This document shows, in pieces, positions 4,946 to 64,000 of a DNA stretch of 64,000 nt. Made by a program: the position numbers and the translations under genes. The notes under the pieces are model-generated. The model had not been told where the DNA came from. It saw nothing but the letters and a program-made list of their open reading frames with translations, and ran no database searches. The stretch spans positions 32,056,001-32,120,000 of the forward strand of contig NC_086108.1 in NCBI RefSeq assembly GCF_963921235.1, read 5' to 3'. The stretch's first letter is position 1. Each line of letters begins with the position of its first letter. The stretch comes from Mobula hypostoma. Its lineage: Eukaryota.

Positions 4946-4981
4946 GTCTATTTGGACTTTAGCAAGGCCTTTGACAAGGTC

Positions 4982-7900
4982 ACTAGACACTAGAATACTA
5001 CAGCAAAGTACAGGCCCTTCGGCCCTCGATGTTGTGCCGACCCATATATTCCTTTAAAAAAAGGAAAAAAAAGTACTAAACCCACACTACCCCGTAACCC
5101 TCTATTTTTCTTTCATCCATGTGCCTGTCCAAGAGGCTCTTAAATACCCTTAATGTTTTAGCCTCTTCTACCATCCCTGGCAAGTCAATCCAAGCACCCA
5201 CAACTCTCTGTGTAAAAAACTCACCCCTGATGTCTCCCCTCAACTTCCCTCCCTTAACTTTGTACATATGCCCTCTGGTGTTTGCTATTTATGCCCTGGG
5301 AAACAGGTACCGGCCATCCACCCTATCTATACCTCTCATAATCTTGTAGACCCCTCTCATCCTTCCACACTCCAAAGAGAAAAAGTCCCAGCTCTGCTAA
5401 CCTTGCCTCATAAGACTTGTTTTCCACTCCAAGCAACATCCTGGTAAATCTCTTCTGCACCCTCTCCATAGCTTCCACATCCTTCCTATGATGAGGTGAC
5501 CAGAACTGAACACAATACTCTAAGTGTGGTCTCACCAGAGATTTGTAGAGTTGCAACATGGCCTCTCTACTCTTGAACTCAATCCCCCTATTAATGAAGC
5601 CTAGCATCCCATAGGCCTTCTTAACTATCCTATCAACCTGTACAGTGACCTTGAGGGATGTATGGATTTGAACCCCAAGGTCCTTCTATTCATCCACACT
5701 CTTAAGTAGCCGACCTTTAACCCTGTACTCAGCCTTCTGGTTTGTCCTTCCAAAATGCATCACCTCACACTTATCCGGATTGAACTCCATCTGCCACTTT
5801 TCTGCCCAACTCTGCATCCTGCCTATATCCTCTTGTAACCGTCAACAACCTACAGCTCCATCCACAACTCCTCCATTCTTCGTGTCATCTGCAAACTTAC
5901 TCACCCATCCTTCCACCTCTTCATCTAGGTCATTTATAAAAATCACAAAGGGCAGGGGTCCCAGTACAGATCCTTGCGGCACTCCACTAGTCACCAACCT
6001 CCAGGCAGAATACTTTCCTTCCACTACTACCCTCTGCTTTCTTCCTGTAAGCCAATTTTTTATCCAAACAGCCAACACTGATCCCATGCCTCCAGACTTT
6101 CTGGATGAGTCTCTCGTGGGGGACCTTGTCAAATACCTTGCTAAAATCCATGTAGACCACATCTACCGCCCTACCCTCATCAATTTCTTTTGTTACCTCT
6201 TCAAAAAACTCAATTAGGCTCGTGAGGCACGACCTTCCCTTCACAAAATCGTGCTGACTATCCTTGAGTAGACTGTACTTCTCCAAATGCTTACAGATCC
6301 TATCCTTAAGAATTCTTTCCAATAGTTTGCAGACCACCGAAGTAAGACTCACTGGTCTATAATTCCCAGGATTCTTCCTATTACCTTTTTTAAACAAGGG
6401 AACTACATTTGCCATTCTCCAATCCTCCGGCACCTCCCCTGCAGCCAAAGAGGATTCAAAGATCATAGCTACTGCTCCAGCTATCTCTTCTCTCACTTCC
6501 CACAGCAACCTGGGGACTTATCAATCTTGATGTTTTAAGAAGATCCAACACTTCTTCTTCCTTAATCTCCACATTGTCCAGCACACAGGCCTGTTCTATT
6601 TCGACCTCACCCTGATCAAGGTCCTTTTCACTTGTGAATACTGAAGCAAAGTATTCATTTAGGACCTCCCCAACCTCCTCCGCCTCCAGGCACATGTTGC
6701 CTTCTTTATCCTTTAGCGGCCCCACCTTCATTCTTGTCATTCTTCTGTTCTTCACCTACGCATAGAACTCCTTGGGGCTCTCCTTAATCCGACATGCCAA
6801 GGCCTTCTCATGCCCCCTTCGAGCTCTCCTAAATCCTTTCTTAAGCTCATTCCTGGCTACCCTATATTTCTCATGAGCCCCTCCTGCTTCCTACTTCTTA
6901 TGTCAAACATATGCTTCCTTCTTCCTCTTGACGAGTTGCCTCACGTGTTTTGTCAGCCACGGTTCCCTTTTCCTACCATTTTTTCCTTGTCTCAGTGGGG
7001 CAAACCTATCCTGAGCCCTGCACAAGTGGTCCCTAAACTTCCTCCACATTACTTCTGTGCTTTGACCTTTGAATATCTGTTTCCAATTTACTCTCGCTAG
7101 TTCCTGCCTCATCCCTTCATAGTTAGCCCTTCCCCAGTTTAGCACTTTCCCATTTTGTCTATTTTTATCCTTTTCCATAGCTATGCTGAAGCTAAGGGAA
7201 TTGTGGTCACTCTCACCAAAATACTCCCCCACCAAGAGGTCTGCCACCTAACCAGGTTCATTACCCAGAACTAGATCTAGTGTGGCCTCTCCCCTCATCC
7301 GCCGGTCCACATACTGTGTCAGGAATTCTTCTTGAACACACCTGACAAATTCAGCCCCATCTATCCCCCTTGCAGTCAGGAGGTGCCAGTCAATATGAGG
7401 GAAGTTGAAATCACCCATAATTACAACCCTGTATTTCCTGCACCATTCTAAAATCTGCCTGCTTATCTGCTCCTCGGTGTCTCGAGGGCTATTTGGGGGC
7501 CTATAAGACTACTCCCAGCACAGTGATTGATCCCTTTCTATTTCTGACTTCCACCCACACCGACTCAGTGGACACTCCCTCTGCAGTGTCCTTCCTTTCT
7601 ATAGCCGTGATACTATCCCTGACCAGTAATGCTGCTCCCCCCACTTTTTCTACCTCCCATCCTATTCCTTTTAAAACGCCTAAACCCCGGTAACTGCATC
7701 AGCCAATCCTGCCCTTCCTCCAGCCAAGTTTCAGTAATGGCCACAACACCATAGTTCCACATACTGATCCATGTTCTAAGTCATCCCCTTTATTCCTAAT
7801 ACTCCTAGCATTGAAATAGACACATTTCAACCCCTCTAACTGGCTACATTTATGTTTTGTCCCCTGCCTGTCCTTCCTCACCAACCCAGAACATATAGCA

Positions 7901-8549
7901 TCATGCCCTTGTCCTTCTACCCTAATCTCTGCACTCAAATTCTGATTCCCACCCCCCTGCCAAACCAGTTTAAACCCTCCCTAACAGCTCTAGCAAACCT
8001 GCCCGCCAGGATATTGGTCCCTTTCCAGTTCAGGTGCAGCCTGTCTTTTTTGTACAGGTCAGTCCTTCCCTAGAAGAGATCCCAATGATCCAGAAATCTG
8101 AACCCCTGCCCCCTGCACCAACCACGTATTCCTTCCCTAGAAGAGATCCCAACAATCCAGAAATCTGAACCCCTGCCCCTCTTCAACCACGCATTCATCT
8201 GCCATAAATTCCTGTTCCTACCCTCTCTGTCTCGTGGCACAGGTAACAATCCCGAGATTACCACCCTTGAGGTCCTGCTTTTTAACTTCTTTCCTAACTC
8301 CCTATCTTCCTTCTTCAGGACCTCAACCCTACTCCTATCTATATCATTGGTCCCCACATGGACCACAACATCTGGCTACTCACCCTCTCTCCTGAAAATA
8401 CCAAAATATTGCGGACCCTGGCACCAGGGAGGCAACAGACCATCTGGGATTCTCGATCTCTCCCACAGGACATCCTATCTGTCCCCCTAACTATCGAATC
8501 CCCTAGCACTACTGCTCTCTTCTTTTCCCTCCTTCCTTTCTGAGCTGAG
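4982..8549 (-). mobile_element. Long CR1-like LINE (ORF1 esterase C-terminus, ORF2 APE and RT), decayed
   Basis: ORF1 SGNH-like VHVGTNDI...VVISGLLPVP (8070-8366); APE start LKCVYFNARSIRNK; RT motifs [34 protein letters not shown] and RPHLEYCVQFWSP. GGTC is duplicated at 4978-4981 and 8550-8553. Confidence 0.93.
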
Positions 8550-9393: not shown

Positions 9394-10459
<1,066 letters not shown>

Positions 10460-13497: not shown

Positions 13498-15074
13498 CAA
13501 TGTTCCCTCTAAGGTGTACACGTGCGCGCACACTTTGCTACGAGTGCACAAAGTAAATTAAACTGCACAAAAGATTGCTACCCACTACTTCATTGGTATA
13601 TTAAGTATATTTTACAATCATACACAATCACATTTTCTTTTCCGGTTTCTGATGCGGACAATGTTGACAATGCGCAGATCAACTAGTGGGAGTATTCACT
13701 ACCATCTTCAACCTCTCGCTACTACAGTCTGTAGTCCCCAGCTGCCTTAAGTCAGCCACAATAATACCCATACCAAAGAAAAGTACAGTGAACTGCCTTA
13801 ATGACTATAGCCCAGTTGCTCTAACTCCTATCATCATGAAATGTTTTGAAAGACTCATACTGTCTTATATTAAGTCTGCCATACCTGCTGACCTTGATAA
13901 ATACCAGTTTGCGTATCGTGCAAAACAGATCGACAGAGGATGCAGTCATCACAGCTCCCCACACAGCCCTTACAAACCTGGATCAGGATAACACCTATGT
14001 AAGAATGTTGTTTGTGGACTACAGCTCAACTTTTAATACAGTCATCCCCTATAAACTGATGCAGAAATTGAGCAACCTGGGCCTTGACAGTTCACTGTGC
14101 TCATGGATACCGGATTTTCTGAGTAACAGACCCCAAAGTGTCAGGATGGGAGAACACACATCATCTACTCTCATCCTGAACACCGGTACTCCACAGGGGT
14201 GTGTTCTCAGCCCCATCCTCTATTCTCTTTTCACCCATGACTGCTCTACCATTCACTCCACCAACACCATTGTCAAATTTGCTGACGGCACCACCCTAAT
14301 AGGTATCATATCAGACTGTGATGAGACAGCCTATAGGGAGGAGGTACAGCATTTGACAGAATGGTGTTGTCATAATAACCTGGACTTGAACATCACAAAA
14401 ACCAAGGAGGTGGTGAGGGTACCCTCCCTCAGAGACATTTATACTGGCAGACTTCAAAAGAAGGCTACTTGTATTTCAAAGGATCCCACTCACCCTGGAC
14501 ATCACCTATTTTCCCCTCTACCTTCTGGGAAGAGATACAGAGCATTAAGGACGAAAACAAAGAGACTCCTTAACAGCTTCTACCCACAAGCAGTGAAATG
14601 TATAACACCCCCTTCCCTTCTCCTGCCCCCCCTCCTAAGACGGCGGCAGCTAAATGCATCACACTTCCAGGAATGGCAGGTGTGCAATAGTCCTACCCCG
14701 CCCATCCATATATTATTAATTTTGGACTGCACTCCTGAAGTTTTAGAGTTTATTTTATGTATATATTCTTTGTCATGCTGCAAAACGTTGAGCTGCTAAG
14801 CTGTGTTTCATTGCTCCACAACAATGACAATAAAGATATTCTTCTTCTTCTTCTTGTTGAAGAAATTATTGATTCACTATGTCGAGTTCCAAAGAAGCAA
14901 AGGGTGTGAAGCGCAAAAGAACTGCTAGTTCAGTTAAAGTGGAATGGCTTATTATCCTTAAATCAGCTTCACGTTTACTTCCACTTAAAAATTCAGTGTG
15001 TAGGTGTTGCTGTCACTGGGCAAAAAAATTGCACAGCATAAGATAGAGGTCATTACAAATTAGAGGGAATATTG
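13498..15074. mobile_element. Non-autonomous hAT element (MITE) carrying a nested Rex1 insertion
   Basis: TIRs CAATGTTCCCTCTAA / TTAGAGGGAATATTG; degenerate 8-bp TSD CTCTGGAC (13490-13497) and CTCCAGAT (15075-15082). Confidence 0.75.
13671..14855 (+). mobile_element. Rex1/Babar-like LINE RT fragment, 5'-truncated and internally deleted
   Basis: [50 protein letters not shown] (catalytic DD changed to DG) and [26 protein letters not shown] and a (TTC)n tail. Confidence 0.9.
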
Positions 15075-19140: not shown

Positions 19141-20172
19141 AGAATCATAGAAATCTACAGCACATTACAGGCCATTTGGCCCACAATGTTGTGCCGACCA
19201 TGTAACCTACTCTAGAAACCACCTAGAATTACCCTACCATATAATGCTCTATTTTTCTAACCTCCATGTACCTATCCAAGAGTCACTTAAAAGACCCTAT
19301 TTACTTGCCTCTATCACTGCCGCCGACACTGAATTCCACACACCCACCACTCTCTGTGTAAAAAAACTTACCTCTGACACCCCCCTTATACCTACTTACA
19401 AGCACCTTAAAACTATGCCCCCTCATGTTAGCCATTTCAGCCCTGTAAAAAAGCCGCTGGCTATCCACATGATCCATGCCTCTCATCACCTTATACACCT
19501 CTATCAGGTCATCTCTCATCCTCTGTCGTCCCAAGGAGAAAAGGCCAAGTTCACTCAGCCTATTCTCATAAGGCATGTTTTCCATTCCAGGCAACATCCT
19601 TGTAAATCTCCTCTGCACTCTCTATATAGTATCCACATCTTCCCTGTAGTGAGCTGACCAGAACTGAACACAGTACTCCAAGTGCGGTCTAGCTAAGGTC
19701 TTACATAGCTTTAACATTACCTCATGGCTCTTGAATTCAATCCCACGGTTGATGATAGCCATCACACCATATGCCTTCTTAACAACACTGTTAACCTGCG
19801 CAGCAGCTTTGAATATCCCATGGACACGGACCCCAAGATCTCACTGATCCTCCACACTGCCAAGAGTCTTACCATTAATATTATATTCTGTCTTCAAATT
19901 TGACCTACCGAAGTGAACACTTATCTGGGTTGAACTCCATCTGCCACTTCTCAACCCAGTTCTGCATCCTATTGATGTCGCACTGTAACCTCCGACAGCC
20001 CTCCAGACTATCTAAAACACCCCCAACTTTTGTGTCATCAGCAAACTAATTAACCACTCTTCTACCACCTCATCCAGGTTATTTATAAAATCACAAAGAG
20101 GAGGGGTCCCAGAACAGATTGCTGCTGAACACCACTGGTCACCATCCTCCACGCAGAATACAAACCATCTAC
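19141..20172 (-). mobile_element. CR1-like LINE 3' fragment
   Basis: QRRFTRMLPG...DLIEVYKVMRG on the minus strand; tail at the left end. Confidence 0.9.
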
Positions 20173-20679: not shown

Positions 20680-22380
20680 AGTGGCATCAACTTCATGGAC
20701 CCTGTACAGATTACAGAGGAGGAGGTGTTTGCTATCCTGAGGCAATCAGGGTGGATAAATGCCCAGGACCTGACAAGGTGTTCCCTCAGACTCTACGGGA
20801 GGCAACAGCAGAAATTGCCTGGCCCTAGCAGAGATATTTAAAACATCCTTAGAGATAGTTGAGATACAAGAGGATTAGAGGTGTTCCACTATTTTAAAAA
20901 AGGCTCTAAACAGAAACCAGGAAATTATTGGCCAGTGAGTCTAACATCAATTGTGGGAAAGTTATTGGAAGGTATTCTAAGTGACCTGATATACAAGGTA
21001 TTTGGATAGACACAGGATAGTCAGCATACCTTTGTGTGTTCATATCTAACTGATCTTATAGAGGAAGTTACTAGGAAAGTGGATGAAAGCAAGGAAATGG
21101 ATCTTATCTACATGGACTTTAGTAAAACATTTGACAGTGTCCTGCATGGGCGGCTGGTCAAGAAGGTTCAGTCGCTCGACATTTAGGATGAGGTAGTATA
21201 AAGTAGATTGGACATTGGCTTTGTGGGAGAAGCCAGCGAGTGGTTGTAGAGGTCCAATCACAAACAAAAGAAAATCTGTAGATGCTGGAAATCCAAGCAA
21301 CCACGCATAAATGCTGGAGGAATTCAGCAGGCCAGACAGCATCTCTCTGACTGGAGGCCTGTGACTAGTGGTATGCCATAGGGATCGGTGCTGGGTCCTT
21401 TGGTGTTTGACATCTATTTCAATGCTCTGGATGATAATGTGGTTAACTGGATCAGCAAACTCGCCGATGGCACCAAGATCAGAGGTGGATAGTGAGGAAG
21501 GCTATCATGGCTTGTAGTAGGATCTGCATCAGCTGGAAAAAATGGGCTGAAAAATAGCAGATGGAATATAATGCAGACAAGTGCAAGGTTTTGCACTTCG
21601 GTAGGACTAAACAGGGTAGGTTTTATACAGTGAACGGTAGGGCATTGAGGAGTGTGGCAGAACAGAGATCTGGGAATACAGGTACATAATTCATTGAAAG
21701 TGACGTCACAGGTACATAGGGTCATAAGAAAAGCTTCTGGCACATTGACCTCCATAAATCAATGTATTGAGTACAGAAGATGGGATGTTATGTTGAAGTT
21801 GTACAAGACATTGGTGAGGTCTAATTTGAAGTAGTGTGTGCAGTTTTGGTCACCTACCTACAGGAAAGATCTGAAAAAGGTTGAAAGAGTGCAGAGAAAA
21901 TTTACAAGGATGTTGCTGGGTCTGGAGTACCTGAGTTACAAGGAAAGAATGAATAGGTTAAGAAGGTATTCTTTAGAAGGTAGAAGACTGAGAGATTTGA
22001 TAGAGGTACACAAAATTATGAGGGGTATAGATGGGATAAATGCAAGCAGACTTTTTCCACTGAGGTTGGGGGGGGCGGGGGAGGGGAATACAACCAGAGG
22101 TCATAGGTTAAGGGTGGAAGGTGAAAAGTTTAAAGGGAACATGAAGAGAAACCTCTTCACTCGGAAGGTCATGAGAGTATGGAATGAGCTGGAAGCACAA
22201 ATGGTCCATGTAAGCTCAACTTCAACATTTAGGAGAAGCTTAGATAGGTACAAGGATAATAGGGTTATGGTAGACTATGGTTCTAATGCAGGTCATTAGG
22301 AGTAGGCAGTTTAAATGGTTTTTGGCATGGACTAGATGGGCTGAAGGGCCTGTTTCTGAGTTATACTTCTTTATGACTAT
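20680..22380 (+). mobile_element. CR1-like LINE ORF2 fragment with a short Penelope pLTR piece at about 21257-21345
   Basis: IYMDFSKTFD, VQFWSPTYRKD and VQRKFTRMLLG motifs, with many frameshifts. Confidence 0.88.
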
Positions 22381-24984: not shown

Positions 24985-27341
24985 CAGGGTTCCCCAATTA
25001 GTTTTCCACAAGGGCCAAATTATGTCAAGCATGCCAAGCCAAGAGCCAAAACGTCCAGCGTTTTTTTTCATTGTGCCAGTAAGTTGTTTTATGGGCAGAT
25101 GTTGCTGTTGGTGGTGGTGGTGGTGGTAGCAGCAGTGGTAGCAGCAGCAGTAGCAGTAGTAGTAGTAGTGGTAGTAGTAGTAACTTAGACCTGGGATTCT
25201 CAAAGCCTGTGTTGTAGGTCACACAAGGAAAAAAAATGCACTCTTGAAACAAAATATGTCCAAAACCGACCATTTAATTATGACTCTAGCTATCACAGCT
25301 GTCAGCTGTCACATTGAGAGCTCAAATGGGACTTAAAATACATACATACATACACACACACACATACACACCGTAAACATGGTAGTCTTCACCACTTCTC
25401 TTCCACACAAAGAACACTTCTCTCCCACGCGGAGTTTTAGTAGTACTGCTTTTTCCACTGTTTCTGTTCTCTCATTTAATCTATTTGTTCTTTTTAATTA
25501 AGCTATGTAGCATTTGAAGTATGAAGTGTAGCTATAAATGAAATTATCAGTATGATTGCAGCTGCAAAAGTATTATACCACAGTAAGATTGACAAATGGA
25601 CAAAAATAAATTGATTCACTCACCAATCAGTCACAGAAGTGACAGCAACGTGATGAGGCAATCCTTCTGATGTCGGGCCTGTAGTCTGTTGTGGCAATCC
25701 TGAGGCACTGGGCAAAATGTGCATTGGAGAGTCTGTTTCTGTCCTGCTTCTTGATAGAGTTCATTGAAGAAAACGATGACTCACATATGTACGTGGAGGG
25801 GAACAGTGTGAGTAGGAGCATTGCAACAGCTCTCGTGTTTTTGAATTGAGCTTGGGGAACCACGTTGATCCAAAAGTCACTCATCCCAACGTTCTTGTAT
25901 TGTGCTTTGAGCAAATCAGATGTTCCCATTTCCAAGACCTCCATCTGAAGAGTTGCCTCATCTATGGAAGGCACCAGCCTTTTGGCCTCGGCAGTCCACT
26001 GGCTGTCAGCCGAAACGGAGAACGGCTGTCTCAGGAAGAGGAGGATGTCACCTGAGAGTTTAGGGGAGCTTTCAAATTGTTCCCTGAAGTTATCTGCCAG
26101 GCTCGTCACGAAATCCTTCATCACTGGATCCTCCTGCATTTCGTTCTTCTCGCAACGCTCCCGCAGAAGTGGAAAGTGCAACTTTCTCCCGTGAATGTCT
26201 CTCTCAAAAAGGTTCAGCTTTGACCAGAAAGCTTCAATTACATTGTACATTCAAAGTACATTATCCACAACAGTGTGGTTGTTGCCTTGTAATTGCAGAT
26301 TAAATTGATTTAGATGAGACATGATGTCACACAAAAATAGAACATGTGCCATCACCTTATTGTCACTTAAAAACCTCTTAAATCCTTGGGCTTTTTGGTT
26401 ATGCAGGCTGGATAAAAATGACACAAGCTCATCGTGCATGTCGCACACCCTTTCGAACACACGGCCTTTGCTCAGCCAGTGAACATCATTATGCAGCAAA
26501 AGATCTTTGCGTTCCGCTGACATTTCCTCCAGCAATGCTCTGAAAAGGCGATGTTACAGACTAGAACTCTCACGAATGAAATTTACCAGTCTCGTCACAG
26601 TATCCATCGCCTCTTTCATTTCCCACACAGTTTAGTGCACATCACTGATTTGTGAATAATGCAATGAAATGCCAAGAGTGCTGGGTTAACAGCAGCAACC
26701 TGCTTATCAAGCCTTTGTGTTGTCCCACCATCGACGGAGCCTCATCGGTGACAACGGGCACAATTTTGCTCACATCAAAGCCATTCTTCTCAAAGAACTG
26801 TCAATTTGTTAAAAATTATTTCCCCAGTTGTGCGCCCAGGCAGAGGAAGCAAACAAAGTAGCTCTTCCCGAAAGGTCTTCTCATCAAAAAATCTTGCGAA
26901 CACAGATAGCTCTTCCATATTGGTTTGGTCACAGGATGAGTCTATGGCTAGTGATATGGCTTCTGCTTTCTCCAAATCGGTGAGCAGATTGGGAAAAACA
27001 CTCCTCCGCTAAAACTTCTACTCTTCTTGTTGCCGTGTTAGTCGACAATGGCACCGTCTTTAATAGCTCCACAACCGCTTTCTTGGTTTTCTCATCATGG
27101 CTTAAAACTTCGCCAACCATGTCAATTGCACACGTTTTAATCAACTCGGCGTCACCTGCTCTACGGGGGCGTAGGTCAAGTGTATAGTGTGGGATGAGGT
27201 TAAAATAAATTAGAGCAGTGCGCGCTTTATTTACATGTTATGACAGGTGCATTCACGTAAGTGCCAATGGGTCAGCGCAGTCCAGGTATTTGGTTCTCGC
27301 GGTCCAGACCTGCCCCACGGTCTGCCTATTGGGGTTGTCTG
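24985..27341 (-). mobile_element. hAT DNA transposon (SPIN/GTF2IRD2/Buster-like), internally deleted and frameshifted
   Basis: Perfect 8-bp TSD CAGTAGAG (24977-24984 and 27342-27349); imperfect TIRs CAGGGTTCCCCAAT / CAGACAACCCCAAT; transposase pieces VPLSTNTATRRV, SLAIDSSCD, LLHNDVHWLSKG and FPSTYICESSFS. Confidence 0.92.
25098..25182. repeat. Compound trinucleotide microsatellite (GTG/GCA/GTA)n
   Basis: Directly visible; lies inside the hAT. Confidence 0.9.
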
Positions 27342-31500: not shown

Positions 31501-32385
31501 TTCTTCAATCTCTAACTGCTGCAGTCATAAGTTCCCACCTGCTTCAAAAGAGCGACAATCATAACAGTGTCCAAGAATTGCAGGGTGAGCTGCCTCAATG
31601 ACTATTGCCCGGTTGCACTCACATCTACAGTGACGAAGTGCTTTGAGAGGTTGGTCGTGGCCAGAATCAACTCCTGCCTAAGCAGTGACCAGGACCCACT
31701 GCAATTTGCCTATTGCCACAATATGTCTACAGCAGATGCAAACTCACTGGCTCTCCACTCATTCTTGGGTCACCTGGACAATAAAAATACCTATCTCAGG
31801 CTGCAGTTTATTATTTGCAGTTCAGTGTTCAATGCAGTCATGCACTCAGTTCTAATCAATAAGCTCCAAAATCTGGACCTCTGTACCTCCCTCTGCAACT
31901 ATGTCCTTGACTTCTTCACCTGGAGACCAGTCAGAGCAGAACAGAAATAGCATTTCCTCCTCACTGCGAATCAATACTGGTGCACCTCAAGGATGCGTGC
32001 TTAGTCCACTGGTCTACTCTCTCTGCACTGATGACTACGTGGCTAAGCATAGCTCAAACACTATCTATAAATTTGCTGATGATAACAACTATTGTTGACA
32101 GAATTTCAGATGGTGATGAGGAGGCGTACAGAAGCAAGAGAGATCAGCTGCTTGAGTGGTGTCACAATGACCTTGCACTCAACATCAGTGAGACAAAGGA
32201 ACTGATTGTGGACTTTAAGAAGGGGAAGTTGAAGGAACACACATCAGTCCTCATCGAGGGATCAACAGTAGAATGGGTGAGCAATTTCAAGTTCCCAGGT
32301 GTCAACATTGCTAAAGATCTATCCTGGGTCCAACATATTGATGCAATGACAAAGAAGGCACGACAACGGCTATATATCACGATAT
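31501..32385 (+). mobile_element. Rex1/Babar-like LINE RT fragment
   Basis: [36 protein letters not shown] and YKFADD motifs. Confidence 0.9.
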
Positions 32386-33114
32386 ATTAAACCTGATTCT
32401 CATTCTCATTAAGTCTATATCCTCTATACCATTGGCCAATTTTTAATCACACTATGATAACAAAGTATTTATCCAGCTCTTTACCAGTCTCCTTTAATTT
32501 GTGCCCTCCAATTGCTAAATTCCTAGTTGTTGAAGTAAGTTTCTCTTTTTAACATGACAACTGAGCTTTGGGAAAATAAAAGATTTATTTTGAGCTTTTC
32601 AAAGATTTTAGTATCTGATGCTTCAACATGAGGAAAATAATTCTTAGGCTTTCTTTATTAATTTATTTTACCACATTTTGGTACTTTCATGTTTACTCTC
32701 ATCAAGTCAGATTCAAGATTAACTTGAATTTTAGATCATTCATTTTGACAGTAGTTCAACTTGATCCTAAAAGTCAAGAACTAACTGAAAATTAAATGAT
32801 GGGTCAATACTATTTAATCTCAAGCTGTTTCAAATGTTAAAGCTTTTTATAACTTCAGCTACTTAACAATGGATTAAAAATCTATCAGCAAGAAAAGTCC
32901 TTTAAAAATAATCTGGTGTGCTAGTAACACCTATGCTTTTCTAAAATGGATTATTGGCAATCAACCAATATAAACAAAAGGTATTTTGCTAAGGTGAAAT
33001 ATCTCCAACTTCCAATCAAGCCATCCTCCATTCTACATCCTCAAAGTAAAGAAGCACCTGATTAAGAAGGTCAGTTATAGTTTGGATGATATAACCAAAT
33101 TATTATTATATACT

Positions 33115-34520: not shown

Positions 34521-35953
34521 CAGGAGTCCCAACCTTTTTTACACTGCAGACTGGTTTAATATTGACAATATTCTTGCGGACCGGCCAACCAGGGGAGGGG
34601 GGAGAGGGGTAGGGTTGCCAACTTTCTCATTATGTTTACCCCGAGAACGACTACCATGACCATGAAGCCTTGCGTGGGCACCTGTGTGCACATGCGTGTA
34701 CGTGCCAATTTTTTTTCTACAGATCGTTTTTGGCTCAGTGAAGGTATGAGAGGTGCGCAAAAACACAACGATGTAGGGGAAGCAATGCGAGGTGCATGAA
34801 AACAAAGCGATATAGGGACAGGTATGAGAGGCCGGTGAAAACACAGCGATAAATGGGAAGCTATAGGAGTTGCGTGAAAATTCTGCTCAGTGAAATTACA
34901 CTGTACATACATTATTTCTACTTTATATAGGCTGTGTGTTTATCATATTCCTGCTTTTACTATATGTTAGTGTTACTTTAGGTTTGATGTGTTATTTGGA
35001 ATGATTTGGTAGGTTATTTTTTGGGTCTGGAAACGCTCAAAAATTGTTCCCATATAAATTAATGGTAATTGCTTCTGCGCTTTACGCCATTTCGGCACGA
35101 AAAGTTGCATAGGAACACTCTACCTTAGCGGGGGAAATACGGGACAAGGGCGGTCCTGTATGGGACAAACCAATTTAGCCCAATATACGGGATGTCCCGG
35201 CTAATACGGGACAGTTGGCAACCCTGGGGGGGGGGGGGGGAGTGGTGTTAATCACGACCAGAATATAGATGATAAGTCAACTGTAAGTCACTTGCAAGTG
35301 GCTAATACACTCAATTTTGTTTCTAAAAGGGTTTATCTAACAAATTTAATATTAAACACACAGCGCATATTTTCCTCGCATCATAACATTTTAAGTAATG
35401 TTTGGATATTAAACACACAGCACATATTTTCCTCATATGAACATATAAAATCATTGCAACACACCAATATCGCTGAATCAGTGGGAGCCCTGGGCTTGTT
35501 TCCCTGCAACAAGACGGTCCCATCGAGGGGTGATGGGAGACAGTGATACTCGAAGGGGGTTCTAGTCCAGTCTATTCCGCAATTTACTTTTCATTGCATT
35601 CACTGCAGAAAACCTCGCTTCGCAGAGATAGGTTGAAAATGGAAGCAACGTTTTCAGTACTTTCGTGGCTATCTCAGGATATTTAGCCTTGACTTTTATC
35701 CAGAATGCTGGCAGAGATGTTATGTCAAACATCCTCTTCAGCCCGCCGTCATTTGCAAGCTCGAGGAGTTGATCTTCTTCCCGCGCTGACATGGATGACA
35801 TGTGCTTAATGACCTCGCTTGCGTTCAAGTTCAACAGTGGGCGTGACGGGAATGAGGAAGGGTGCAGCTGACTCATATCGTTTCATATCACCAAATCATA
35901 TCATTTCCTCGCAGCCTGGTACCGGTCTGCGGCCCGGTGGTTGGGGACCACTG
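34521..35953 (-). mobile_element. Non-autonomous hAT (Buster/Charlie) with a transposase C-terminal remnant
   Basis: TSD TACTAAGG / TTCTAAGG; ends CAGGAGTCCCAACC / GGTTGGGGACCACTG; hATC-like FWIKVKAKYPEIA...LLPFSTYLCEARFS...KLRNRLD at 35562-35876. Confidence 0.88.
34610..35226. mobile_element. Nested TIR element inside the hAT
   Basis: TIRs TAGGGTTGCCAACT / AGTTGGCAACCCTG with G-rich flanks. Confidence 0.7.
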
Positions 35954-36358: not shown

Positions 36359-38859
36359 CCATACAGCTATGCTGGCTCTCCCTAATAAGGCCATAGTTTT
36401 CCAAATACTCATATACCTATCCTTAAGAATTATCTCCAGTAACTAACGTGAGACTTGCCGGTCTATAGTTTCCAGGATTATTCCTGGTTCTCTTCTTGAA
36501 TAATGAAACAACATTAGCTACTTGCCAGTCCTCCAGGCCTGTAAGTTTGGAGCACAAATTATACATAGTGTAAGCCCTTGTGAACTGAAAACTGTACTGG
36601 ATTCAGGCCTTGACTACAAGGTTAATCAACTTACTCAAATTATTGCCACTGAGAGTTTTCATTAATTGTCCTGTTTCGAGCTTTCAAACGGGATGTTAAA
36701 ATTGTATTTTTTTGTTTGTCAGAGGACACCAATAGTCCCACTTAAAACTTTTTAAATCCTTGTTTTAATTATAAAGAAATGGACCCTTTTATGTCAATGC
36801 AACTGGTAAACAGTTCTGAGTATTTCTTTAAAGTTATTTAGGCGTGCTAATTCATAAATAGCAGAAGATAACCTGGATGAAAAGTTAGATGGGTAGATAC
36901 TAAGACGACAATCAACTTGTAAACATTAGTACAATAATTGATTTTACTGGAAGCGTTCGAGAAATGGTAAAGTCACACATCTTAGACTACAAGATGTATA
37001 CATAACAATCCTTTCCTATGGGAAAGCAATGTGCTATCTCCAGAAGCTCACTTGAAATTTTCAATCTATGTTGGTTGCAAAAATGTCTCCAAACTTTAGT
37101 GTGGGACTACAAAATAAATTACCAGCATAACACACAAATTTAGCACCAACTAACAAAATCATGCTGGGCATTAATGCATTACAGAGATCAATTTTATATC
37201 AATATTTACAGAAATGTAAGATTGGTAGATGTGATAATGTGGCAGAACCTATTTGTAAAAATAGGATACTTTAACTGAAATAATCAAAGGAATAACAGGT
37301 ATGGTAGGCAAGGACGTGAAAGAAGTATACTGACACATCTAAAATATTCTTCCTAGATTTGAGGCTTATGGACATTATAGAATATATTCAATGTCATTTT
37401 TATTTGTCAGTGCAACACTTGCCCTTTAATACTTATGCAAACATGATTGACAGAAATGTATCCCATTTCATTTCAAGAACCTATAGTCAAATTCATCCCA
37501 GGATTCAAAGCAATGAATTTCAGAGGCAGAGCAGAACTGAGCTAAGTAAGAATAAATTGCATTGAGAACAAGGGAGGAATTCCAAGGTGAGGCAATTGAA
37601 GTTTGAAACTGACATCCTCAGTTTTAAGAGCAATATAAATAATCTTCCTGCATTACATGAATGAATATGCTTACTTCATTTGACTAGCAACAAACACTTC
37701 TTTCATTTTAGGCACTCAATTACATCCAGTTGTGTGTAATACTAATACAAACACACACAAAGACACTAAAACTAGAAAAAACATGATTAGAGAACAGATT
37801 ATTGGGCTATTTCAAATTGTTTATTGTTGGTTGGAGCTTGCTATTTGCAAATTGGCTGCTATTTTCTATATCAACACAGTATGATACTTGAAATGTACGT
37901 CACTGGACGTAAAATGTTCTGGAACATCCTGATAAGGTGAAACCGCAAGTCTTTCATTGTTTTCGTTGTATCTACACTATTTATGCTTCACTTAATTCAG
38001 AATGAATAAACTGAAATATTGCTCTTTGAAGTGAATAAAATTATAGTCAGATTAGATTGCTTCATATCAAAATGGTATCCTTCAAATTTAGATCAGCAAG
38101 ATGGTAAATTCAGCAATAAAAATGTACAAGCATGCACTGTGCTCGATGCAATATAGTACAAGTGTTTCTTGTACCCAATATATCTTAATTACATTTCTCA
38201 ATGGCGAATCAGACCATATTAAACTTGCTCTTTTGTGGTGAAATGTTAAACATTCACCAATTTGCATTTTTGTGTTACTAACGTGCAGTGGTACTAAATT
38301 CAAGACCAAAGCTCACTGAGAATGTGTAATGTGTGACTTCATTTCATTTCAACATCTGTTCTATGCAACTAATTTCTAGTTCTACATATTAGAGCTAATG
38401 ACTAGCTGAAAGCACTTTAGTGTTGAAGAAAATTTTAAAATGAACAAATTCACACATATTTGTTGCAAGATATGGTTCTATGTATACATTAGGTTTTGAT
38501 TTAAAGCAGTGTTTTCACTCTCTTCACATAGTGTATTTTCTTACTGAAGCATATCATTAAAAATCCAGTGCTGACTTTGGCACACAGAACCCATAGTGCA
38601 AGAATGTCTTACTTGAAGCAGCTGGGAAATATACACAGGCTTACTCCACAACTTTATATTCATCCTAGTCTAAACAGTATTCAACTGCATTGTAACGATA
38701 AGATGCTTCAAAGTTATTATATCTAAACACATTTAACACAGCTTATTATCTCGCTTTCATAGTTGATGTATTTAACTATATAATTTATACAAAAAAATTC
38801 TGGAGAAGACACATGCAGTTTGAAAGATCTTGGTTCTTTGGAGATCAGCTAACAATTCA

Positions 38860-39530
38860 GCCAGCTAGCCAGCCAGCCAAAATAGCTAACAGGAAATAGG
38901 AAGGCCACATGTGGAACTAATTACTCATGTGTAGGCCATGACAAAGAACATTTCTCCAGACTTTTCATGAGCTTCATTTTCAGGAAGTAGCTGTAATTAC
39001 TGTTCAAGTCTAGGGCATGATTCTTAGTACTGACAGTTCCAGCATTTGAGAGGAGCCTATAGCCTTTTCTGTACCGAACAGGAACTGAGATAAAACTGCT
39101 ACAAATTAAAAACAAATGTTCTTTTCATAATACTTTATGCATTTACTAACACAGACATAGAACATTATTCCTGTCAGTTAGGAATATTTTATTTAACTGT
39201 TCAAACTACTGTGCTAAAATGGTTCATCTTGATTTTACAGCTTTTCCATACAAGGGGCCCACTTCCTGCCTTGCTCAGAAAGCTGGCTGAAAGATGAAAT
39301 GACTGTTTAGCATTACACTAAAACATCTGGTACCATTTTATATACAGACCCATGTCTGAGAGCAAGCAATTCTAGCGGTCTCTCCAGCAGCACAGTGCAT
39401 ACCCAATCTCCCTGGGGTGACATCATCCCATATATGGATTGCTAGGCCCAGCCCACCCCTTTTTTTTCTTGTCCTAAATTCATTGCCAGATCCCTGTCTC
39501 CTGCAAATGTGCCACGTCAAGGCTGGAAAT
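38860..39530 (+). promoter_or_regulatory. Putative DNM3OS (pri-miR-199/214) promoter/enhancer
   Basis: Palindromic E-box CCACATGTGG at 38905-38914 with TAATTA at 38918; CArG-like CCATACAAGG at 39246 next to ETS ACTTCCTG at 39261; AAACATCTGG E-box at 39321-39330; TATA-like ttttatata at about 39336; perfect CArG CCATATATGG at 39428-39437; TGCCACGTCA at 39510. All lie just upstream of miR-199. Confidence 0.6.
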
Positions 39531-39635
39531 CACAGTTCTTTTAGAGACTTCAGTGTACGCAGACAACAGTGGATGGTGAACTTGGTGTGCATGTATAATT
39601 TCTTTGATGGCAGAAGACAAGAGAAAGTCAAAAGG

Positions 39636-39729
39636 TCCTGCTCCGTCGCCCCAGTGTTCAGACTACCTGTTCAGGACAATATTGTTGTACAGTAGTCTGC
39701 ACATTGGTTAGACTGGGCATGGGAAAGCA
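39636..39729 (+). ncRNA. MIR199A2: pre-miR-199 (mir-199a-2 orthologue)
   Basis: 5p CCCAGTGTTCAGACTACCTGTTC at 39650-39672 and 3p ACAGTAGTCTGCACATTGGTTA at 39689-39710 match the known mature sequences. The flank TCCTGCTCCGTCGC and loop AGGACAAT are of the 199a-2 type. Confidence 0.97.
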
Positions 39730-42700
39730 ACAATAAGTTTCTTTCCACACTTTTCAGAGAAGACAGATGAACAGTGCTACAGTAAGAGCAAGTATCTTTC
39801 TTTCCTTCACCTTTTGTTTTTTGAGAAAAAAAACAGCAATGATGAGGAACTCTTCCTACAGGAGGCTCTCCCCACATAGTTTTGCAGCTGGAGACATGCC
39901 TAGGCCTAGAGTTGGACAACACCTGGTCTATGACCTGACGAACTTCACTGACCTGATCTCACCATCATAAATGGAGATATGTACCAATTGAAAGGATGGG
40001 ATTCAACACTAGGTACTCCACTGTAAATAACACAAAAGTCTTCGTGAACTTAAAAAAGTTTATTGTACCATTTGTGCGCACTTACCTCATGATCAAAAAT
40101 ACAGCCATGTCAGTGCAATGATCTAATTCAATGTTTGATTGTGTTATTATTGCAGTTAATTACAAAAGATAAAATATATTCTGTTTCAATGCAGTCAATG
40201 ACAAAATTTTATGTAAATGAGAAATACACTGCAAAATTTTCTACATAGTACTTATAAATATGCAGCGTTTGTGAACCAGCTTTCTGAGTGTCTCCACCGA
40301 TTACAGACTATCTTAAGGTGAGTAGTACAACATTAGGATGTTTAATCAAAAGTTTGTGTAAAATTTTGATCTTTGTGCTTAAATGCCTGGATTTTATTGC
40401 AGTATGCTAATATTTTGGTAAAAATTCCACCTACATTATCAAAATACAAGTCATATTCACCAAAGAAGAATATTAAAGAACTGCACTGTAGTCTCATTGT
40501 TGGTTAAAGAAAACTTTTGCATTGCATGACTGAAACTAAAAACAGAGGAAAATATTCTGATTTACTTTGCTTCACTTCGGTTAGTGACTAAGAAGGGAAG
40601 GTAGAGTTAATAACTTTTCTAAAAGTATTATAAAGAGTTCAAAATAAAATATCACAGACTTGAAATTAAATAGAATGAACATTTCTGAATCTTAGCACAC
40701 CAATATCATTTTAAATTGACATCTTTACAATGAAGCAACTTAATATTTGCCTGAAATTGTAGTGCTTTTTAGCAATTTCATTTTATATGACATCCAAACT
40801 GATTTCAGAGATATTAACTCCAACTGCTTAGCATATGTTTCAAGAAAAAGGAATGATTAAGAAACGTAAAATGAAAGGTCTTATCAGCATACCCAAGGGA
40901 TTACTGTCCGCTGAAAGCTTATTTTCTGTGAGGCTAAATATGTGTTGCTAATTTTACAATTGTCCATTCACAGTTATGCTGCATCATATCCTCTAACCAT
41001 CTTGGTCTCTTATTTGATGAGGAAAAGTATTAGCTTCCACAATTTTAATATGGAAGTTGTGCAAATTATTATTGCAAACACTTTAAAATCATACATTAAC
41101 TTACTGACTTAGGAAATTCTAAATGTTGCAATAACCTTTTAAAAACAAATCTTATTTGTTCTAAAATTATGCTCCCCTATACTTTTCAGTTACTGAACAT
41201 TTTAAGAGACTATCTGCAAGCCATAACCAATATCCTAAGAGTGGGAAATATATTACATCCAACTACACAGCATATTTACACAATTATTGTTATTTTGAAT
41301 AAAGTCAACAACTTTGGATGAAACAGTCACTACGAAACATGTAATATTCTTAGGACTGAGTGAGAGATTATTTCAGTAGTTTGAAAGGAAGTCAAAGTAC
41401 CCATGTTAAAAAAATTACTGATTACATTTTTTTATCATAAAATGCTGAACAAAAAATGTATTTTGGACCATAGCATTCAGAGAAGTGCAACTTGTCAACT
41501 AATTTATGTTCTGCCACACTTTTTAAAAAATCCAAAGTTTTGTCTGTTATGTGTAGAATTGAAATAATCACGCTTCTTAAATTTACAGTTTTGATTCAAC
41601 TGCAGATGTAGTTGAATCTGTTAGGTTGGAGTAAAATGGTTTAAATAAAATTCTCAACGAGTAAGATCACTCCATTTATAAGATGATTCTCATGTTTCAG
41701 ATTTTACTGCTTATTCTTAATCTTGTTGTCCTTACTGGCCTACTAATTTGTTTATACTAGCTACATCGCAGTTATGGACCACCCAAGCCTCACGCCTCCA
41801 TTTAAAGTGACCATAGTTAGGAAATGGTGCATTGGCGAGTTTTCAAGCAAATAAATTTGGTGATGTTTTATTATCAAGACAATTTCTCACTAATTTACAG
41901 TTTATTTTTTTTATGATTTGGATTTTTTCCCTAAAAAATTCTCTTTCAAATTTCAAAGCACTAACATCTAAGAATTGAACTATATGATTATGACAATTAA
42001 GTAGCTGCACGACTGTAAAAAGAATAAACTTGTTTTTGCAGTTTGACCATTTACTTGAGAAGGATTTAAATGTTGAGAGCAGATACATTCTATTTAATAT
42101 TTTTAAATAGTTACCATAAAAAAGTATTTATTTAATACCATATTTGTTAACTGCAACAAAAGGTATTTTTAATCATGTGCCTGGAATAGAAAAGAGTTCA
42201 AAATATAAAAATCTTTATTTTTTTAAGAATGAGTTTTAAGCGGAAATATATCTGTTTGAAAATAAACATCCAATTTCCGCAAATCAACAACTGCACTCCA
42301 CGTCAAAACTTTGTACAAAATCCAGGATATTGGCCAGTAGGCGAAGGTTTCATTTCGAGATGGGTGTTCAGTTCAAAGTAAACATTTTAAAATATTCATT
42401 TCCTGCACTTCTGCCAGTACATAGAGCATATAATGCAGTCCATTTTTGTACTTCTTATGATCAGAGGCTTGGGTTATCAGTATACTCAGTTTATATCCAT
42501 ATTGTGAGGTACTATTTATACTGTGAAGCAATAAATTTGCCTGAAAGCAGTTTAATTTGTCAGAACAAACTGCACACCAACATGCTGACATTATTTATTG
42601 CAGTCTATTGATCCTAAAATGTCAAAAATGTAAAAAGTGAACAAAAGCAATTTGTAACCATTGTATATTAAGAATAACATTAATATAGAAAATATTTAAA

Positions 42701-43907
42701 TCATTCTGCAGACTAATTATCTATGCTTTTTCTCCCCCAGAGTAATTGGTAATTATTTTACCTTGGTCACAACATTTCAACTACGATTTTGCCCAATATT
42801 CAATTAAATAATTCAGTGTTAAATGGAATTTCGGATTACCATCATTCTAGAAGTCAAAATAAATAAAATTGTAATTTTTTTTTGTGACCTTCTGCATTTA
42901 TACTAAGTATCTTCTACTCCTTTAGAATGTTGACAATTCAATAATCTGTCTCCATTAACAATCAAGACTTTTCAAAGTGGTTTAACTTATATACAAAGAT
43001 TTTGAGGTGTTTTAAAAACATTAAGCACTATTTTTATTCTTTTCAGTTACTGTATTATCGGTACAAAACGTTTGCCTCATTAGCCCAGGTGTACTTAATG
43101 TCAACAATAATGCCATTATTGTAATAATAAATGAAGAGCCATATTACAATAATAGTGGTAATAGTGAAGTTACATAAGAGTTAACTGTAGTGACCATTCA
43201 AACGTTCATCTATAACTACAGACCAGAGCTATATTTTACAATATTTTATTATTGTAAATGCAAATTAGTAAACCATCAAATGAATTTTAAGATAAATCTA
43301 CTCGGTATTCTCATCCCATAAACAGGAATCCTTATACGAAAGTTTTTTTAAAATAGCAGATGCTAGAAATCTGAAATTAAAACAGAAAATGGTCGGGTTA
43401 GGCAGCATCTGTGGAAGGAGAAACAGTTATATTTCAGGTCAAAGACTCCTCATTCTGATATTTTCTGCTTTTATTTAAGAATTGTTCTTTTACTGAAAGA
43501 TCAAAATTTGTAATTTTTCCCTTCCAGAAACATGTAAACACTATTTTCTACTCTTTCTGTTTTTTTAAAAACTGGTTTACAATTGAAAATATCTTCATGC
43601 TGCAATTGGCTGCCATTTGGTGAGAGGCAAGGAGGAAAAGGACTGATTTATAAACTTGGATGGTGAAAGTAAACTAGTTGTTCAAATCACAGTTGAATTT
43701 GATATTAATCTTTTCACTCACGGAGAATGTATCATGTTACTAAGAATAATGGTAATCTCGTGTTAAATTGTATATTTATGAATGCTAATATTATTCAACG
43801 TTAATTGCTAAAAGAATACAGAATGAATGTTCATTCAAGAACACATCAATTGTTGTGAAAACTCATTACTTACTACAAAGAAGAACACAGTAAAAGATCC
43901 TAGAAAT

Positions 43908-44012
43908 GGCTGGTAGGAGTTGTCATGTGTCTGCCTGTCTACACTTGCTGTGCAGAAAATCCTCTCACCTGTACAGCAGGCACAGACAGGCAGTCACATG
44001 ACAACCCAGCCT
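43908..44012 (+). ncRNA. MIR214: pre-miR-214
   Basis: 5p TGCCTGTCTACACTTGCTGTGC at 43932-43953 and 3p ACAGCAGGCACAGACAGGCAGT at 43973-43994; extended stem GTTGTCATGTG / CACATGACAAC. Confidence 0.98.
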
Positions 44013-47477: not shown

Positions 47478-48125
47478 AAAGTTGCCTCACAGGTGGATAG
47501 GGTAGTTAAGAAAGCTTATGGGGTGTTAGTTTTCATAAGTTGAGGGATAGAATTTAAGAGTCGCGATGTAATGATGCAGCTCTATAAAACTCTGGTTAGG
47601 CCACACTTGGAGTACTGCGTCCAGTTCTGGTCGCCTCACTATAGGAAGGATGTGGAAGCATTGGAAAGGGTACAGAGGAGATTTACCAGGATGCTGCCTG
47701 GTTTAGAAAGTATGCAGTATGATCAGAGATTAAGGGAGCTAGGGCTTTACTCTTTGGAGAGAAGGAGGATGAGAGGAGACATGATAGAGGTGTACAAGAT
47801 AATAAGAGGAATAGATAGAGTGGATAGCCAGCGCCTCTTCCCCAGGGCACCACTGCTCAATACAAGAGGACATGGCTTTAAGGTAAGGGGTGGGAAGTTC
47901 AAGGGGGATATTAGAGGAAGGTTTTTTACAAAGAGAGTGGTTGGTGCGTAGAATGCACTGCCTGAGTCAGTGGTGGAGGCAGATCACTAGTGAAGTTTAA
48001 GAGACTACTAGACAGGTATATAGAGGAATTTAAGGTGGGGGCTTGTATGGGATGCAGGGTTTGAGGGTCGGCACAACATTGTGGGCCGAAGGGCCTGTAC
48101 TCTGCTGTACTATTCTATGTTCTAT
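47478..48125 (+). mobile_element. Relatively young CR1-like 3' fragment
   Basis: Open 126-aa stretch LYKTLVRPHLEYCVQFWSPHYRKDVEALERVQRRFTRMLPG; ttctatgttctat tail. Confidence 0.93.
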
Positions 48126-49900: not shown

Positions 49901-50014
49901 CTCTTCATCCTTGAACCAACAGAGACACTCTGCAGTCAACACAAACCAGTATTCCTTGGAACCTCCTTTTATGATGCTGATATTGCTGATGGTGAGCCAA
50001 CCTTTTCTGACCAC
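49901..50014 (-). CDS. DNM3: Dynamin-3 exon encoding the start of the PH domain (114 nt, phase 0/0)
   Basis: ttccttgtag|GTG...GAG|gtaaga; translates to [38 protein letters not shown], a dynamin PH domain. The paralogue is assigned from 'TISN' and from the antisense miR-199 + miR-214 pair in the next intron. Confidence 0.95.
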
Positions 50015-60219: not shown

Positions 60220-60261
60220 CTTAGCACGTAAAATTTGTCTCAACAGTGGAAGATGAGAGTA
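60220..60261 (-). CDS. DNM3: Probable alternatively spliced DNM3 microexon (YSHLPLLRQI[LRAK]); donor position uncertain
   Basis: Strong acceptor ttttgttttgctatttcag|TAC. In-frame YSHLPLLRQI resembles the mammalian DNM3 10-aa insert (GTNLPPSRQI, recalled) found at the same junction. The first in-frame GT is AAG|GTTTTG at 60219. Confidence 0.65.
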
Positions 60262-61059: not shown

Positions 61060-61111
61060 CTGATTCCCAGCAGTGTGCTTCTTATTAAGCTGACCACACC
61101 TTTGTTGGGCA
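61060..61111 (-). CDS. DNM3: Dynamin-3 exon at the stalk-to-PH linker (52 nt, phase 2/0)
   Basis: ttttctatag|T GCC CAA CAA...AAT CAG|gtaaga; translates to (N)AQQRCGQLNKKHTAGNQ, homologous to dynamin NAQQRS.Q..KK...GNQ. Confidence 0.92.
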
Positions 61112-62449: not shown

Positions 62450-64000
62450 CCATAAGATATAGGAGCAGAATTTGACAATTAGATCCATCAAGTCTAGTAC
62501 GCTATTCTATCATGGCAGATTTATTATCCCCTCTCATCCCCATTCTCCTGCCTTCTCCTCAGAACTCTTGACACTCTTATTAATCAACAACTTATTAAGC
62601 TCCACTTTAAATATACCAAATGAATTGTCCTCCACAGCCATCTCTGCCAATAAATTTCACAGGTTCATCACCTTTTGTCTAAAGAATTTCCTCCTCATCT
62701 GATTTCCCTTTAGAAACCCTTCTATTCTGTGGCTGTGCCTTCTGGTCCTAGACTGGCACACTATAGGAAACATCCTCTCCATACCCACTCTACCTGGATC
62801 TTTCAATATTGGATAGGTTTCAATGAGATCCTCCTTCATTCTTCTATGCTCCAGCGAGTACAGGCCCAGAGCCATCAAGTGCTCCTCATACGTTAACCCC
62901 TGTCATTCCCAGAATTATTTTCATAAATCTACTCTGGACCCTTTCTAATGTCTGCACATCCATTCTTAGATAAGGGACCCAAAACTACTCACAATACTCC
63001 AAATGCAGTCTGACCAATACCTTATAAAAACTCAGCAATACATCCTTACTTTTATATTCTAGTCCTCTTGAAATGAATGCTAACAGTGCATTTGCCTTAC
63101 TTTCCAACAACTCAAACTGCAAGTTAACCTTCAGGAAATCCTGCATGAGGGCTCCCAAGTCCTTTCGCACCTCTGATTTCTGAATTTTCTCCCCATTTAC
63201 AAAATACTCTACACCTTTATTCCATCTACCAACCGCATGACCATACACTTCCCTATACTATTTTCCATCTGCCACTTCTTTGCCCATTCTCTCAATCTGT
63301 CCAAGTCCTTCTCCAGACTCCTTGCTTCCTCAAAACTACTGCCACTCCATTGATCTTCGTATTGTTTGCAAACTTGGCCACAAAGCCATCAATTATGTCA
63401 TCCAAATCATTGCTAAAAGAAGCAGACCCAACACTGACACCTGTGGAACACAACTAGTCACTGGCAACCAACTAGAAAAGGCCCTCTTTATTCCCACCCA
63501 GTCCATCAATGTTCTACCCATGCTGGTATGTACTTATCCTGTAATACTGTGGGCTCTTATCTTGCTTAGCAGCCTCATGTGCAGCACCATTTCAAAGGCT
63601 TTCTGAAAATCCAGGTAAACAACATCCATTAACTATCCTGCCTGTTATTTCCTTAAAGAATTCCAATAGATTTGTTAGGCAAGATTTCCACGCTGACTTC
63701 AGCCTATTTTATCATGTGCCTCCAAATACTCCAAAATATCATCCTTACATCTTCCCAACCATTGAAGTCAGGCTCACTGGCCTATAATTTCCTTTCTTCT
63801 CTCTCCGTCCTTTCTTGAAGAGAGGAATGACATTTGCAATTTTCCATTTTTCCAGGACCATTGTAAAATCTAGTGATTCTTGTTAGATCACTATTGAAAG
63901 ATCACTGCTTCCAGAATCTCTTCAGCTACCTCTTTCAGAATCCTGAGGTGTAGTCCATCTGGTCGAGGTGACTTATCTACCTTCAGACTTTTCAGCTTTC
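62450..64000 (-). mobile_element. CR1-like LINE ORF2 fragment running off the window
   Basis: ANALLAFISRGLEYKSKDVLL, DLIETYPILK and GNYRPVSLTS remnants; tail at the left end. Confidence 0.9.

Follow-up and report, generated by a model that had tools for sequence, protein, structure and literature searches.

A sequence orthologue of the mirror microRNA miR-3120 opposite miR-214 in a DNM3 intron of the ray Mobula hypostoma

The analysed stretch of DNA, hereafter the window, comprises 64,000 nucleotides of Mobula hypostoma (contig NC_086108.1, positions 32,056,001 to 32,120,000 of the forward strand), and all coordinates below count from its first letter. Its minus strand had been described beforehand as the sense strand of the dynamin gene DNM3, and the dynamin exons indeed lie on that strand. 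These exons were located by motif search and tblastn, and the thresholds of a generic exon scan excluded them.

61060..61111, minus strand: upstream DNM3 exon of 52 nt, bounded by AG and GT (tblastn 18/21 over 61119-61057; splice sites)
49901..50014, minus strand: DNM3 exon of 114 nt that opens the PH domain, bounded by AG and GT (PDB and protein matches, tblastn, splice sites)

The PH-domain exon (50014-49901) matches the PH domains of dynamins in 13 PDB sequences (best 1.2e-17), matches that cannot tell the dynamin paralogues apart (the best is to Dynamin-2, 64.9 bits). Among the best 15 of its 85 protein matches, 12 are named and all of these come from cartilaginous fishes, with 10 dynamin-3 or dynamin-3a proteins, one dynamin-2-like protein and one dynamin-1-like protein. 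Tblastn with 6 of the 85 proteins gave identities of 38/38 to both Mobula birostris and Hemitrygon akajei, which are myliobatiform rays, followed by Heptranchias (37/38), Pristis (36/38), Amblyraja (34/38) and Callorhinchus (33/38), in keeping with a host among the myliobatiform rays. Tblastn did not locate the next downstream DNM3 exon within the window. The hairpin of miR-214 and miR-3120 sits 5.9 kb into the intron that follows exon 50014-49901, and the mirror hairpin, antisense to miR-214, is read on the sense strand of the host gene, which is the placement by which miR-3120 is recognised. In zebrafish, dnm3os lies antisense within the intron between dnm3a exons 14 and 15 (bioRxiv 10.1101/2024.05.01.592007), and the arrangement of the window agrees with this.

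Several other elements were observed in the window. A remnant of a DNM3 micro-exon of 30 nt (60232..60261, minus strand) keeps its acceptor AG, has TT at the expected donor GT and agrees at 9/9 residues with the Pristis pectinata protein. The corresponding insert is present in proteins of Pristis, Chiloscyllium, Cetorhinus and Narcine and absent from the Mobula, Hemitrygon and Amblyraja proteins compared, so that it is possibly an alternative exon lost in some batoids. Many decayed LINE-like reverse-transcriptase fragments, which we take to resemble CR1/L2 and Rex/Babar elements, are scattered through the intron, with LINE-like fragments at 1994-8490, 13668-14799, 19301-19621, 21835-22299, 31531-32390, 47544-47951 and 62985-63257. 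The broken frames at 25627-27237 and 35562-35882 (minus strand) presumably resemble hAT/Charlie-type transposases. At 9685-9927, a pure run of 54 G is followed by 95 perfect GA repeats, and this run may be partly an assembly artefact. No tRNA genes were found in the window.

The plus strand, which is the strand of DNM3os, carries the two microRNAs of the miR-199/miR-214 cluster.

39640..39719, plus strand: pre-miR-199, the cluster partner, 4.2 kb upstream of miR-214 (RF00144, 102.5 bits)
43919..44005, plus strand: pre-miR-214 hairpin (Rfam RF00660, 121.1 bits; MFE -56.1, z -10.3)
43932..43953, plus strand: miR-214-5p, the passenger arm (same arm as the human miR-214-5p printed in PMC7357559)
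43973..43994, plus strand: miR-214-3p, the main product, seed CAGCAGG (position computed)

The covariance-model match of mir-214 on this strand covers the full model (positions 1-101 of 101), and a common isomiR of miR-214-3p, as seen in the zebrafish isomiR rows, begins one base earlier, at 43972. The miR-199 hairpin folds worse in antisense than in sense (-28.3 versus -36.8; z -2.8 versus -6.6), in agreement with the weaker antisense fold that Scott et al. (PMC3340243) predicted for mammals.

Upstream of miR-199, a perfect CArG box was observed at 39428-39437 on the plus strand, at a distance of about 200 nt and as one of three in the window, and a CATCTG E-box, one of 54 in the window, lies about 100 nt upstream of the CArG box (39324-39329, plus strand). 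The mammalian miR-199/miR-214 cluster is under the control of SRF and Twist1. Twist-1 is also named in PMC3340243. The region around the two microRNAs (38001-44000) is AT-rich, with a GC content of 0.30-0.31 at 40001-44000, and no retroelement-like ORF falls within it among the 84 ORFs listed, in contrast to the remaining intron; such a region is consistent with a constrained DNM3os unit.

Read on the minus strand, the 87 nt of the miR-214 hairpin (43919-44005) form a second hairpin.

43919..44005, minus strand (DNM3 sense strand): mirror hairpin, the pre-miR-3120 orthologue (MFE -52.7, z -8.0; RF00660, 93.4 bits)
43970..43990, minus strand: predicted miR-3120-5p, seed CUGUCUG (21/21 with macaque 5p; 2-nt overhang geometry)
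43932..43952, minus strand: predicted miR-3120-3p, seed ACAGCAA (21/21 with macaque 3p)

The two 21-mers that the preliminary description had placed on the minus strand at 43990-43970 and 43952-43932 were recovered exactly by slicing the window, and their identification with mammalian miR-3120-5p and miR-3120-3p held, as each arm agrees by eye at 21/21 positions with the macaque sequences printed in PMC7357559. The identity extends to 85/87 bases of the hairpin, again by eye, and both differing bases (43958 and 43963) lie in the loop. The miR-3120-3p arm is the exact reverse complement of nucleotides 1-21 of miR-214-5p.

The minus strand of the hairpin forms 31 Watson-Crick pairs, three G·U pairs and three mismatches, and the plus strand forms 31 Watson-Crick pairs, two G·U pairs and four mismatches, namely one U·U together with A·C, C·A and A·C at 43941-43943 versus 43983-43981. 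The latter three had been described as turning into G·U wobbles on the minus strand, with the two plus-strand G·U pairs becoming mismatches there, and both changes were located as described. The expectation that the antisense hairpin would fold well was borne out when both strands were folded, with -56.1 kcal/mol for the plus strand (z -10.3) and -52.7 kcal/mol for the minus strand (z -8.0). No shuffled sequence folded as well (0/200 for either strand), and compared with shuffles the fold is far beyond chance. The mean pairing probability in a 207-nt context is 0.88 in each mirror arm, and the lower stem consists of 11 bp without G·U. RF00660 (mir-214) exceeds its gathering score of 66.7 on both strands, and the Rfam matches in the window number three: mir-214 on the plus strand, mir-214 on the minus strand and mir-199 on the plus strand. 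A canonical microRNA is recognised by reads from both arms, 3' overhangs of 2 nt, at least 16 pairs and about 90% homogeneous 5' ends. The predicted mirror duplex has 3' overhangs of 2 nt at both ends and at least 16 pairs, and its arms, at hairpin positions 16-36/54-74, lie in another register than the miR-214 arms at 14-35/55-76.

The mirror microRNA had been presented as one described in mammals; this is correct for rat and macaque, but it is not limited to mammals. Scott et al. (2012; PMC3340243) reported in vitro processing of miR-3120, its detection by qPCR in rat neurons, a repression of Hsc70 and auxilin reporters that miR-214 did not give, and a rise of Hsc70 under a miR-3120 sponge. 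Both arms were sequenced from macaque blood leucocytes (PMC7357559). A mammal-only mirror is rejected by the zebrafish and stickleback reads of Desvignes et al. (2019; PMC6408482), in which the mirror pair was sequenced in both fishes, both arms were annotated in stickleback, and a gar mir3120 hairpin was named in a table. By eye, the window agrees at 22/22 with the zebrafish 3p read (43952-43931), and at 22/22 (5p) and 21/22 (3p) with stickleback miR-3120. The 3p seed ACAGCAA is common to macaque and zebrafish; the stickleback 3p is annotated 2 nt earlier and hence has another seed (PMC6408482; PMC7357559), a shift that may rest on few reads.

Among the papers listed in literature searches, we found no report of miR-3120 in cartilaginous fish; MirGeneDB, the 2014 paper on miR199-214 evolution or supplements may hold one. 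Neither microRNA of the pair is mentioned in the main text of a paper on bamboo shark liver, and the "3120" strings encountered in PMC12159128, PMC7996739 and PMC3789328 are incidental rather than miR-3120. The miR-214/miR-3120 system is already known, and the predicted ray copy is a further orthologue from a lineage for which no report was found.

Strand artefacts were cautioned against in PMC6042801, where the miR-214/miR-3120 pair is named beside iab-4/iab-8. In the macaque library CE01, one of four, miR-3120 has 85 reads (24 5p and 61 3p) and miR-214 has 4 by hand tally (PMC7357559); therefore, the mirror reads are not leakage from miR-214, and these counts together with the different register rule out strand mix-ups as the origin of the published mirror reads. 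The 5' ends in that library are homogeneous in 21/24 reads of the 5p arm and 44/61 reads of the 3p arm.

A hairpin by itself is insufficient for a microRNA, since most antisense transcripts of microRNA loci are unprocessed: Song et al. (2020; PMC7263187) reported antisense transcription at 81% of the loci, with few of the transcripts processed. The hairpin could accordingly form in ray DNM3 pre-mRNA, as simply the reverse complement of miR-214, and yield no stable small RNA. This explanation, which would also accord with the good fold expected by chance of such a stem and with the lack of a chondrichthyan report among the papers listed, is in our view unlikely, because macaque, zebrafish and stickleback all process these arms, even though the lower stem of stickleback is more diverged than that of the ray, and because two loop bases are all that separates the ray hairpin from that of macaque. 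Being near-identical and placed in the same transcript, the ray hairpin is probably processed as well, and processing from ray DNM3 pre-mRNA is plausible.

The minus-strand stem might also act as a structure of the DNM3 pre-mRNA rather than as a source of small RNA, serving as an ADAR substrate, as a perfect miR-214 site or in transcriptional cross-talk with DNM3os. By construction, each miR-214 arm has its perfect complement in the intron, and editing of antisense microRNA hairpins and sense-antisense regulation have been described in general (Song et al., 2020; PMC7263187), but nothing specific to this locus points to such a role and the main text of that paper mentions neither miR-214 nor miR-3120, so that we consider this explanation very improbable.

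Processing of the mirror hairpin was further considered in terms of the CNNC and basal UG motifs, with their established definitions and positions. One CNNC-type motif lies 16 nt 3' of the predicted Drosha cut.

43913..43916, minus strand: CNNC-type motif (expected 1 in 16 per position)

The basal UG of the mirror hairpin is one base off the -14/-13 register and falls in register with a cut at position 17, which is the cut of the stickleback annotation (PMC6408482). On the miR-214 strand, neither CNNC nor basal UG is in register. The macaque flank as printed, in contrast to that of the ray, is without CNNC at +16 to +18 (by eye). As motifs this short, CNNC and UG on the mirror strand are weakly suggestive of processing.

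Whether selection acts on the mirror strand itself is a separate matter. The locus could be a two-way microRNA gene in the manner of iab-4/iab-8, with both strands selected from the jawed-vertebrate common ancestor onwards and with miR-3120, co-expressed with DNM3, tuning clathrin uncoating through Hsc70 and auxilin; we regard this as improbable. Equally improbable, in our estimate, is its corollary that the G·U-free lower stem and the mirror UG and CNNC were retained owing to a need for DNM3 pre-mRNA to serve Drosha as well. Such selection on both strands would fit the functional assays in rat neurons, which are mostly over-expression evidence, the 85/87 bases common to ray and macaque, the lower stem included, the 3p 5' end common to macaque and zebrafish, and the CNNC and near-register UG of the mirror strand. 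It would also fit one arm substitution in stickleback, a single event, after which the mirror strand still pairs (as G·U) at a site where the miR-214 strand has lost its pair (PMC6408482). The 5' homogeneity of the macaque reads and the shifted stickleback seed argue against it.

The fold and the arm overlap bear on the same matter. The preliminary description had given the exchange of A·C for G·U as the reason for the good antisense fold. When all 27 triplets of passenger bases that stay unpaired in the miR-214 register were tested, antisense energies ranged from -56.3 to -49.9 with a median of -52.1, and the exchange was rejected as the cause because the real triplet ties at rank 9-11 of 27; its wobbles are not tuned for folding of the mirror. 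In crude simulations with a fixed number of substitutions (1,500 stems per setting, each of 37 pairs with six substitutions), the weaker strand folded at -52.7 or below in 17%, 32% and 41% of stems at transition weights of 1, 4 and 8, and three or more A·C mismatches arose in 7%, 30% and 48%, respectively. A good fold on both strands is therefore not beyond chance for a stem with 31/37 Watson-Crick pairs, the symmetry between strands being a consequence of these many strand-symmetric pairs, and nothing in the fold tests points to optimisation of the mirror strand. In addition, the miR-3120-3p arm lies wholly inside miR-214-5p, and the miR-3120-5p arm overlaps miR-214-3p by 18 bases and takes in three further stem bases, which are paired; all mature miR-3120 bases lie within the miR-214 stem and thus under miR-214 constraint, which again speaks against selection on both strands. 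The suggestion that conservation is a by-product of constraint on miR-214 is the best-supported reading.

About 100 reads per million are usually required for repression. In 8 zebrafish libraries, miR-3120-3p totals 55 reads, at 0-1.77 per million, and amounts to 0.74% of miR-214-3p overall, with a denominator of at least 7,422 reads from the 15 rows labelled miR-214 (PMC6408482). In zebrafish, brain has the highest ratio of mirror to miR-214, at 2.5% compared with 0.6% in testis, 0.4% in heart and 0.2% in ovary; the Fisher p of 5e-9 for this brain excess is overstated since reads were pooled. The levels per million are 0.44-1.77 in brain, 0.68-0.71 in heart and 1.19-1.24 in testis (PMC6408482), which are alike, and the brain excess is only relative and stems from low miR-214. 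Thus, the brain enrichment expected in the preliminary description stands relative to miR-214 in zebrafish, where it would fit selection on both strands, but not in levels per million, which are similar in heart and testis. Macaque means for miR-3120 are 4.3 and 9.5 per million (PMC7357559), and the levels in both zebrafish and macaque fall short of that usual for repression. The range of miR-3120 levels in the data examined, from 0 up to roughly 10 per million, is a further point against a two-way gene.

In addition, miR-3120-3p and the U-start isomiR of miR-214-3p have seed positions 2-7 and 16/21 bases in common. By hand tally, 3,094 of the 7,422 zebrafish reads in the rows labelled miR-214 belong to this isomiR, which is also the form annotated for stickleback (PMC6408482). 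Because of the overlap in seed, the target set of the mirror may overlap that of miR-214.

Weighing these observations, we propose as a reasonably probable explanation that the ray has a miR-3120 copy that is processed at a low level from DNM3 pre-mRNA and is conserved mostly as a by-product of miR-214. The miR-214 stem is close to a perfect palindrome (31/37 Watson-Crick pairs), so that any opposite-strand transcript would present a 37-bp stem; DNM3 would be the source of that transcript, and Drosha and Dicer would cut the mirror hairpin from its pre-mRNA at a low level. With DNM3 on and DNM3os off, the mirror could exceed miR-214 and yet stay scarce. Both the processing and the low abundance in the ray are projected from other vertebrates. 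Conservation as a by-product is most likely in view of the triplet rank, the folds of neutral stems, the restriction of the macaque differences to the loop, the stickleback seed shift and the overlap with the miR-214-3p isomiR. Against its being only a by-product stand the functional data from rat, the motifs of the mirror strand, the zebrafish brain ratio, the common 3p start in macaque and zebrafish and the stickleback substitution.

In the mammalian system (PMC3340243; PMC7357559), as in the ray, the pair lies in the same intron after the first PH-domain exon and in the same orientation, with arms identical at 21/21 and with miR-199 upstream on the DNM3os strand; besides the two loop bases some flank bases differ, and the ray products are predicted from sequence. 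The zebrafish and stickleback mir3120 (PMC6408482) resemble the ray copy in their near-complete arm matches, but the annotated stickleback duplex departs from the macaque register by 1 nt (5p) and 2 nt (3p), and its lower stem is diverged; the ray hairpin stands nearer to the mammalian one. Likewise, iab-4/iab-8 of arthropods (PMC6042801) and miR-24-1/miR-3074 (PMC7357559) each yield one product from either strand of a single hairpin.

Whereas iab-8 is transcribed on its own and its function has been shown genetically, the predicted ray mirror rides on a protein-coding intron. With the ray copy, the sequence of an already published mirror microRNA is now recorded from cartilaginous fish. This is of modest importance, as the presence of a miR-3120 sequence there follows almost automatically from the conservation of miR-214. 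Reads from the ray, if they existed, would date two-strand processing to the jawed-vertebrate ancestor, and the locus would gain in importance only if selection on the mirror strand were true, in which case vertebrates would have a deep counterpart of iab-4/iab-8.
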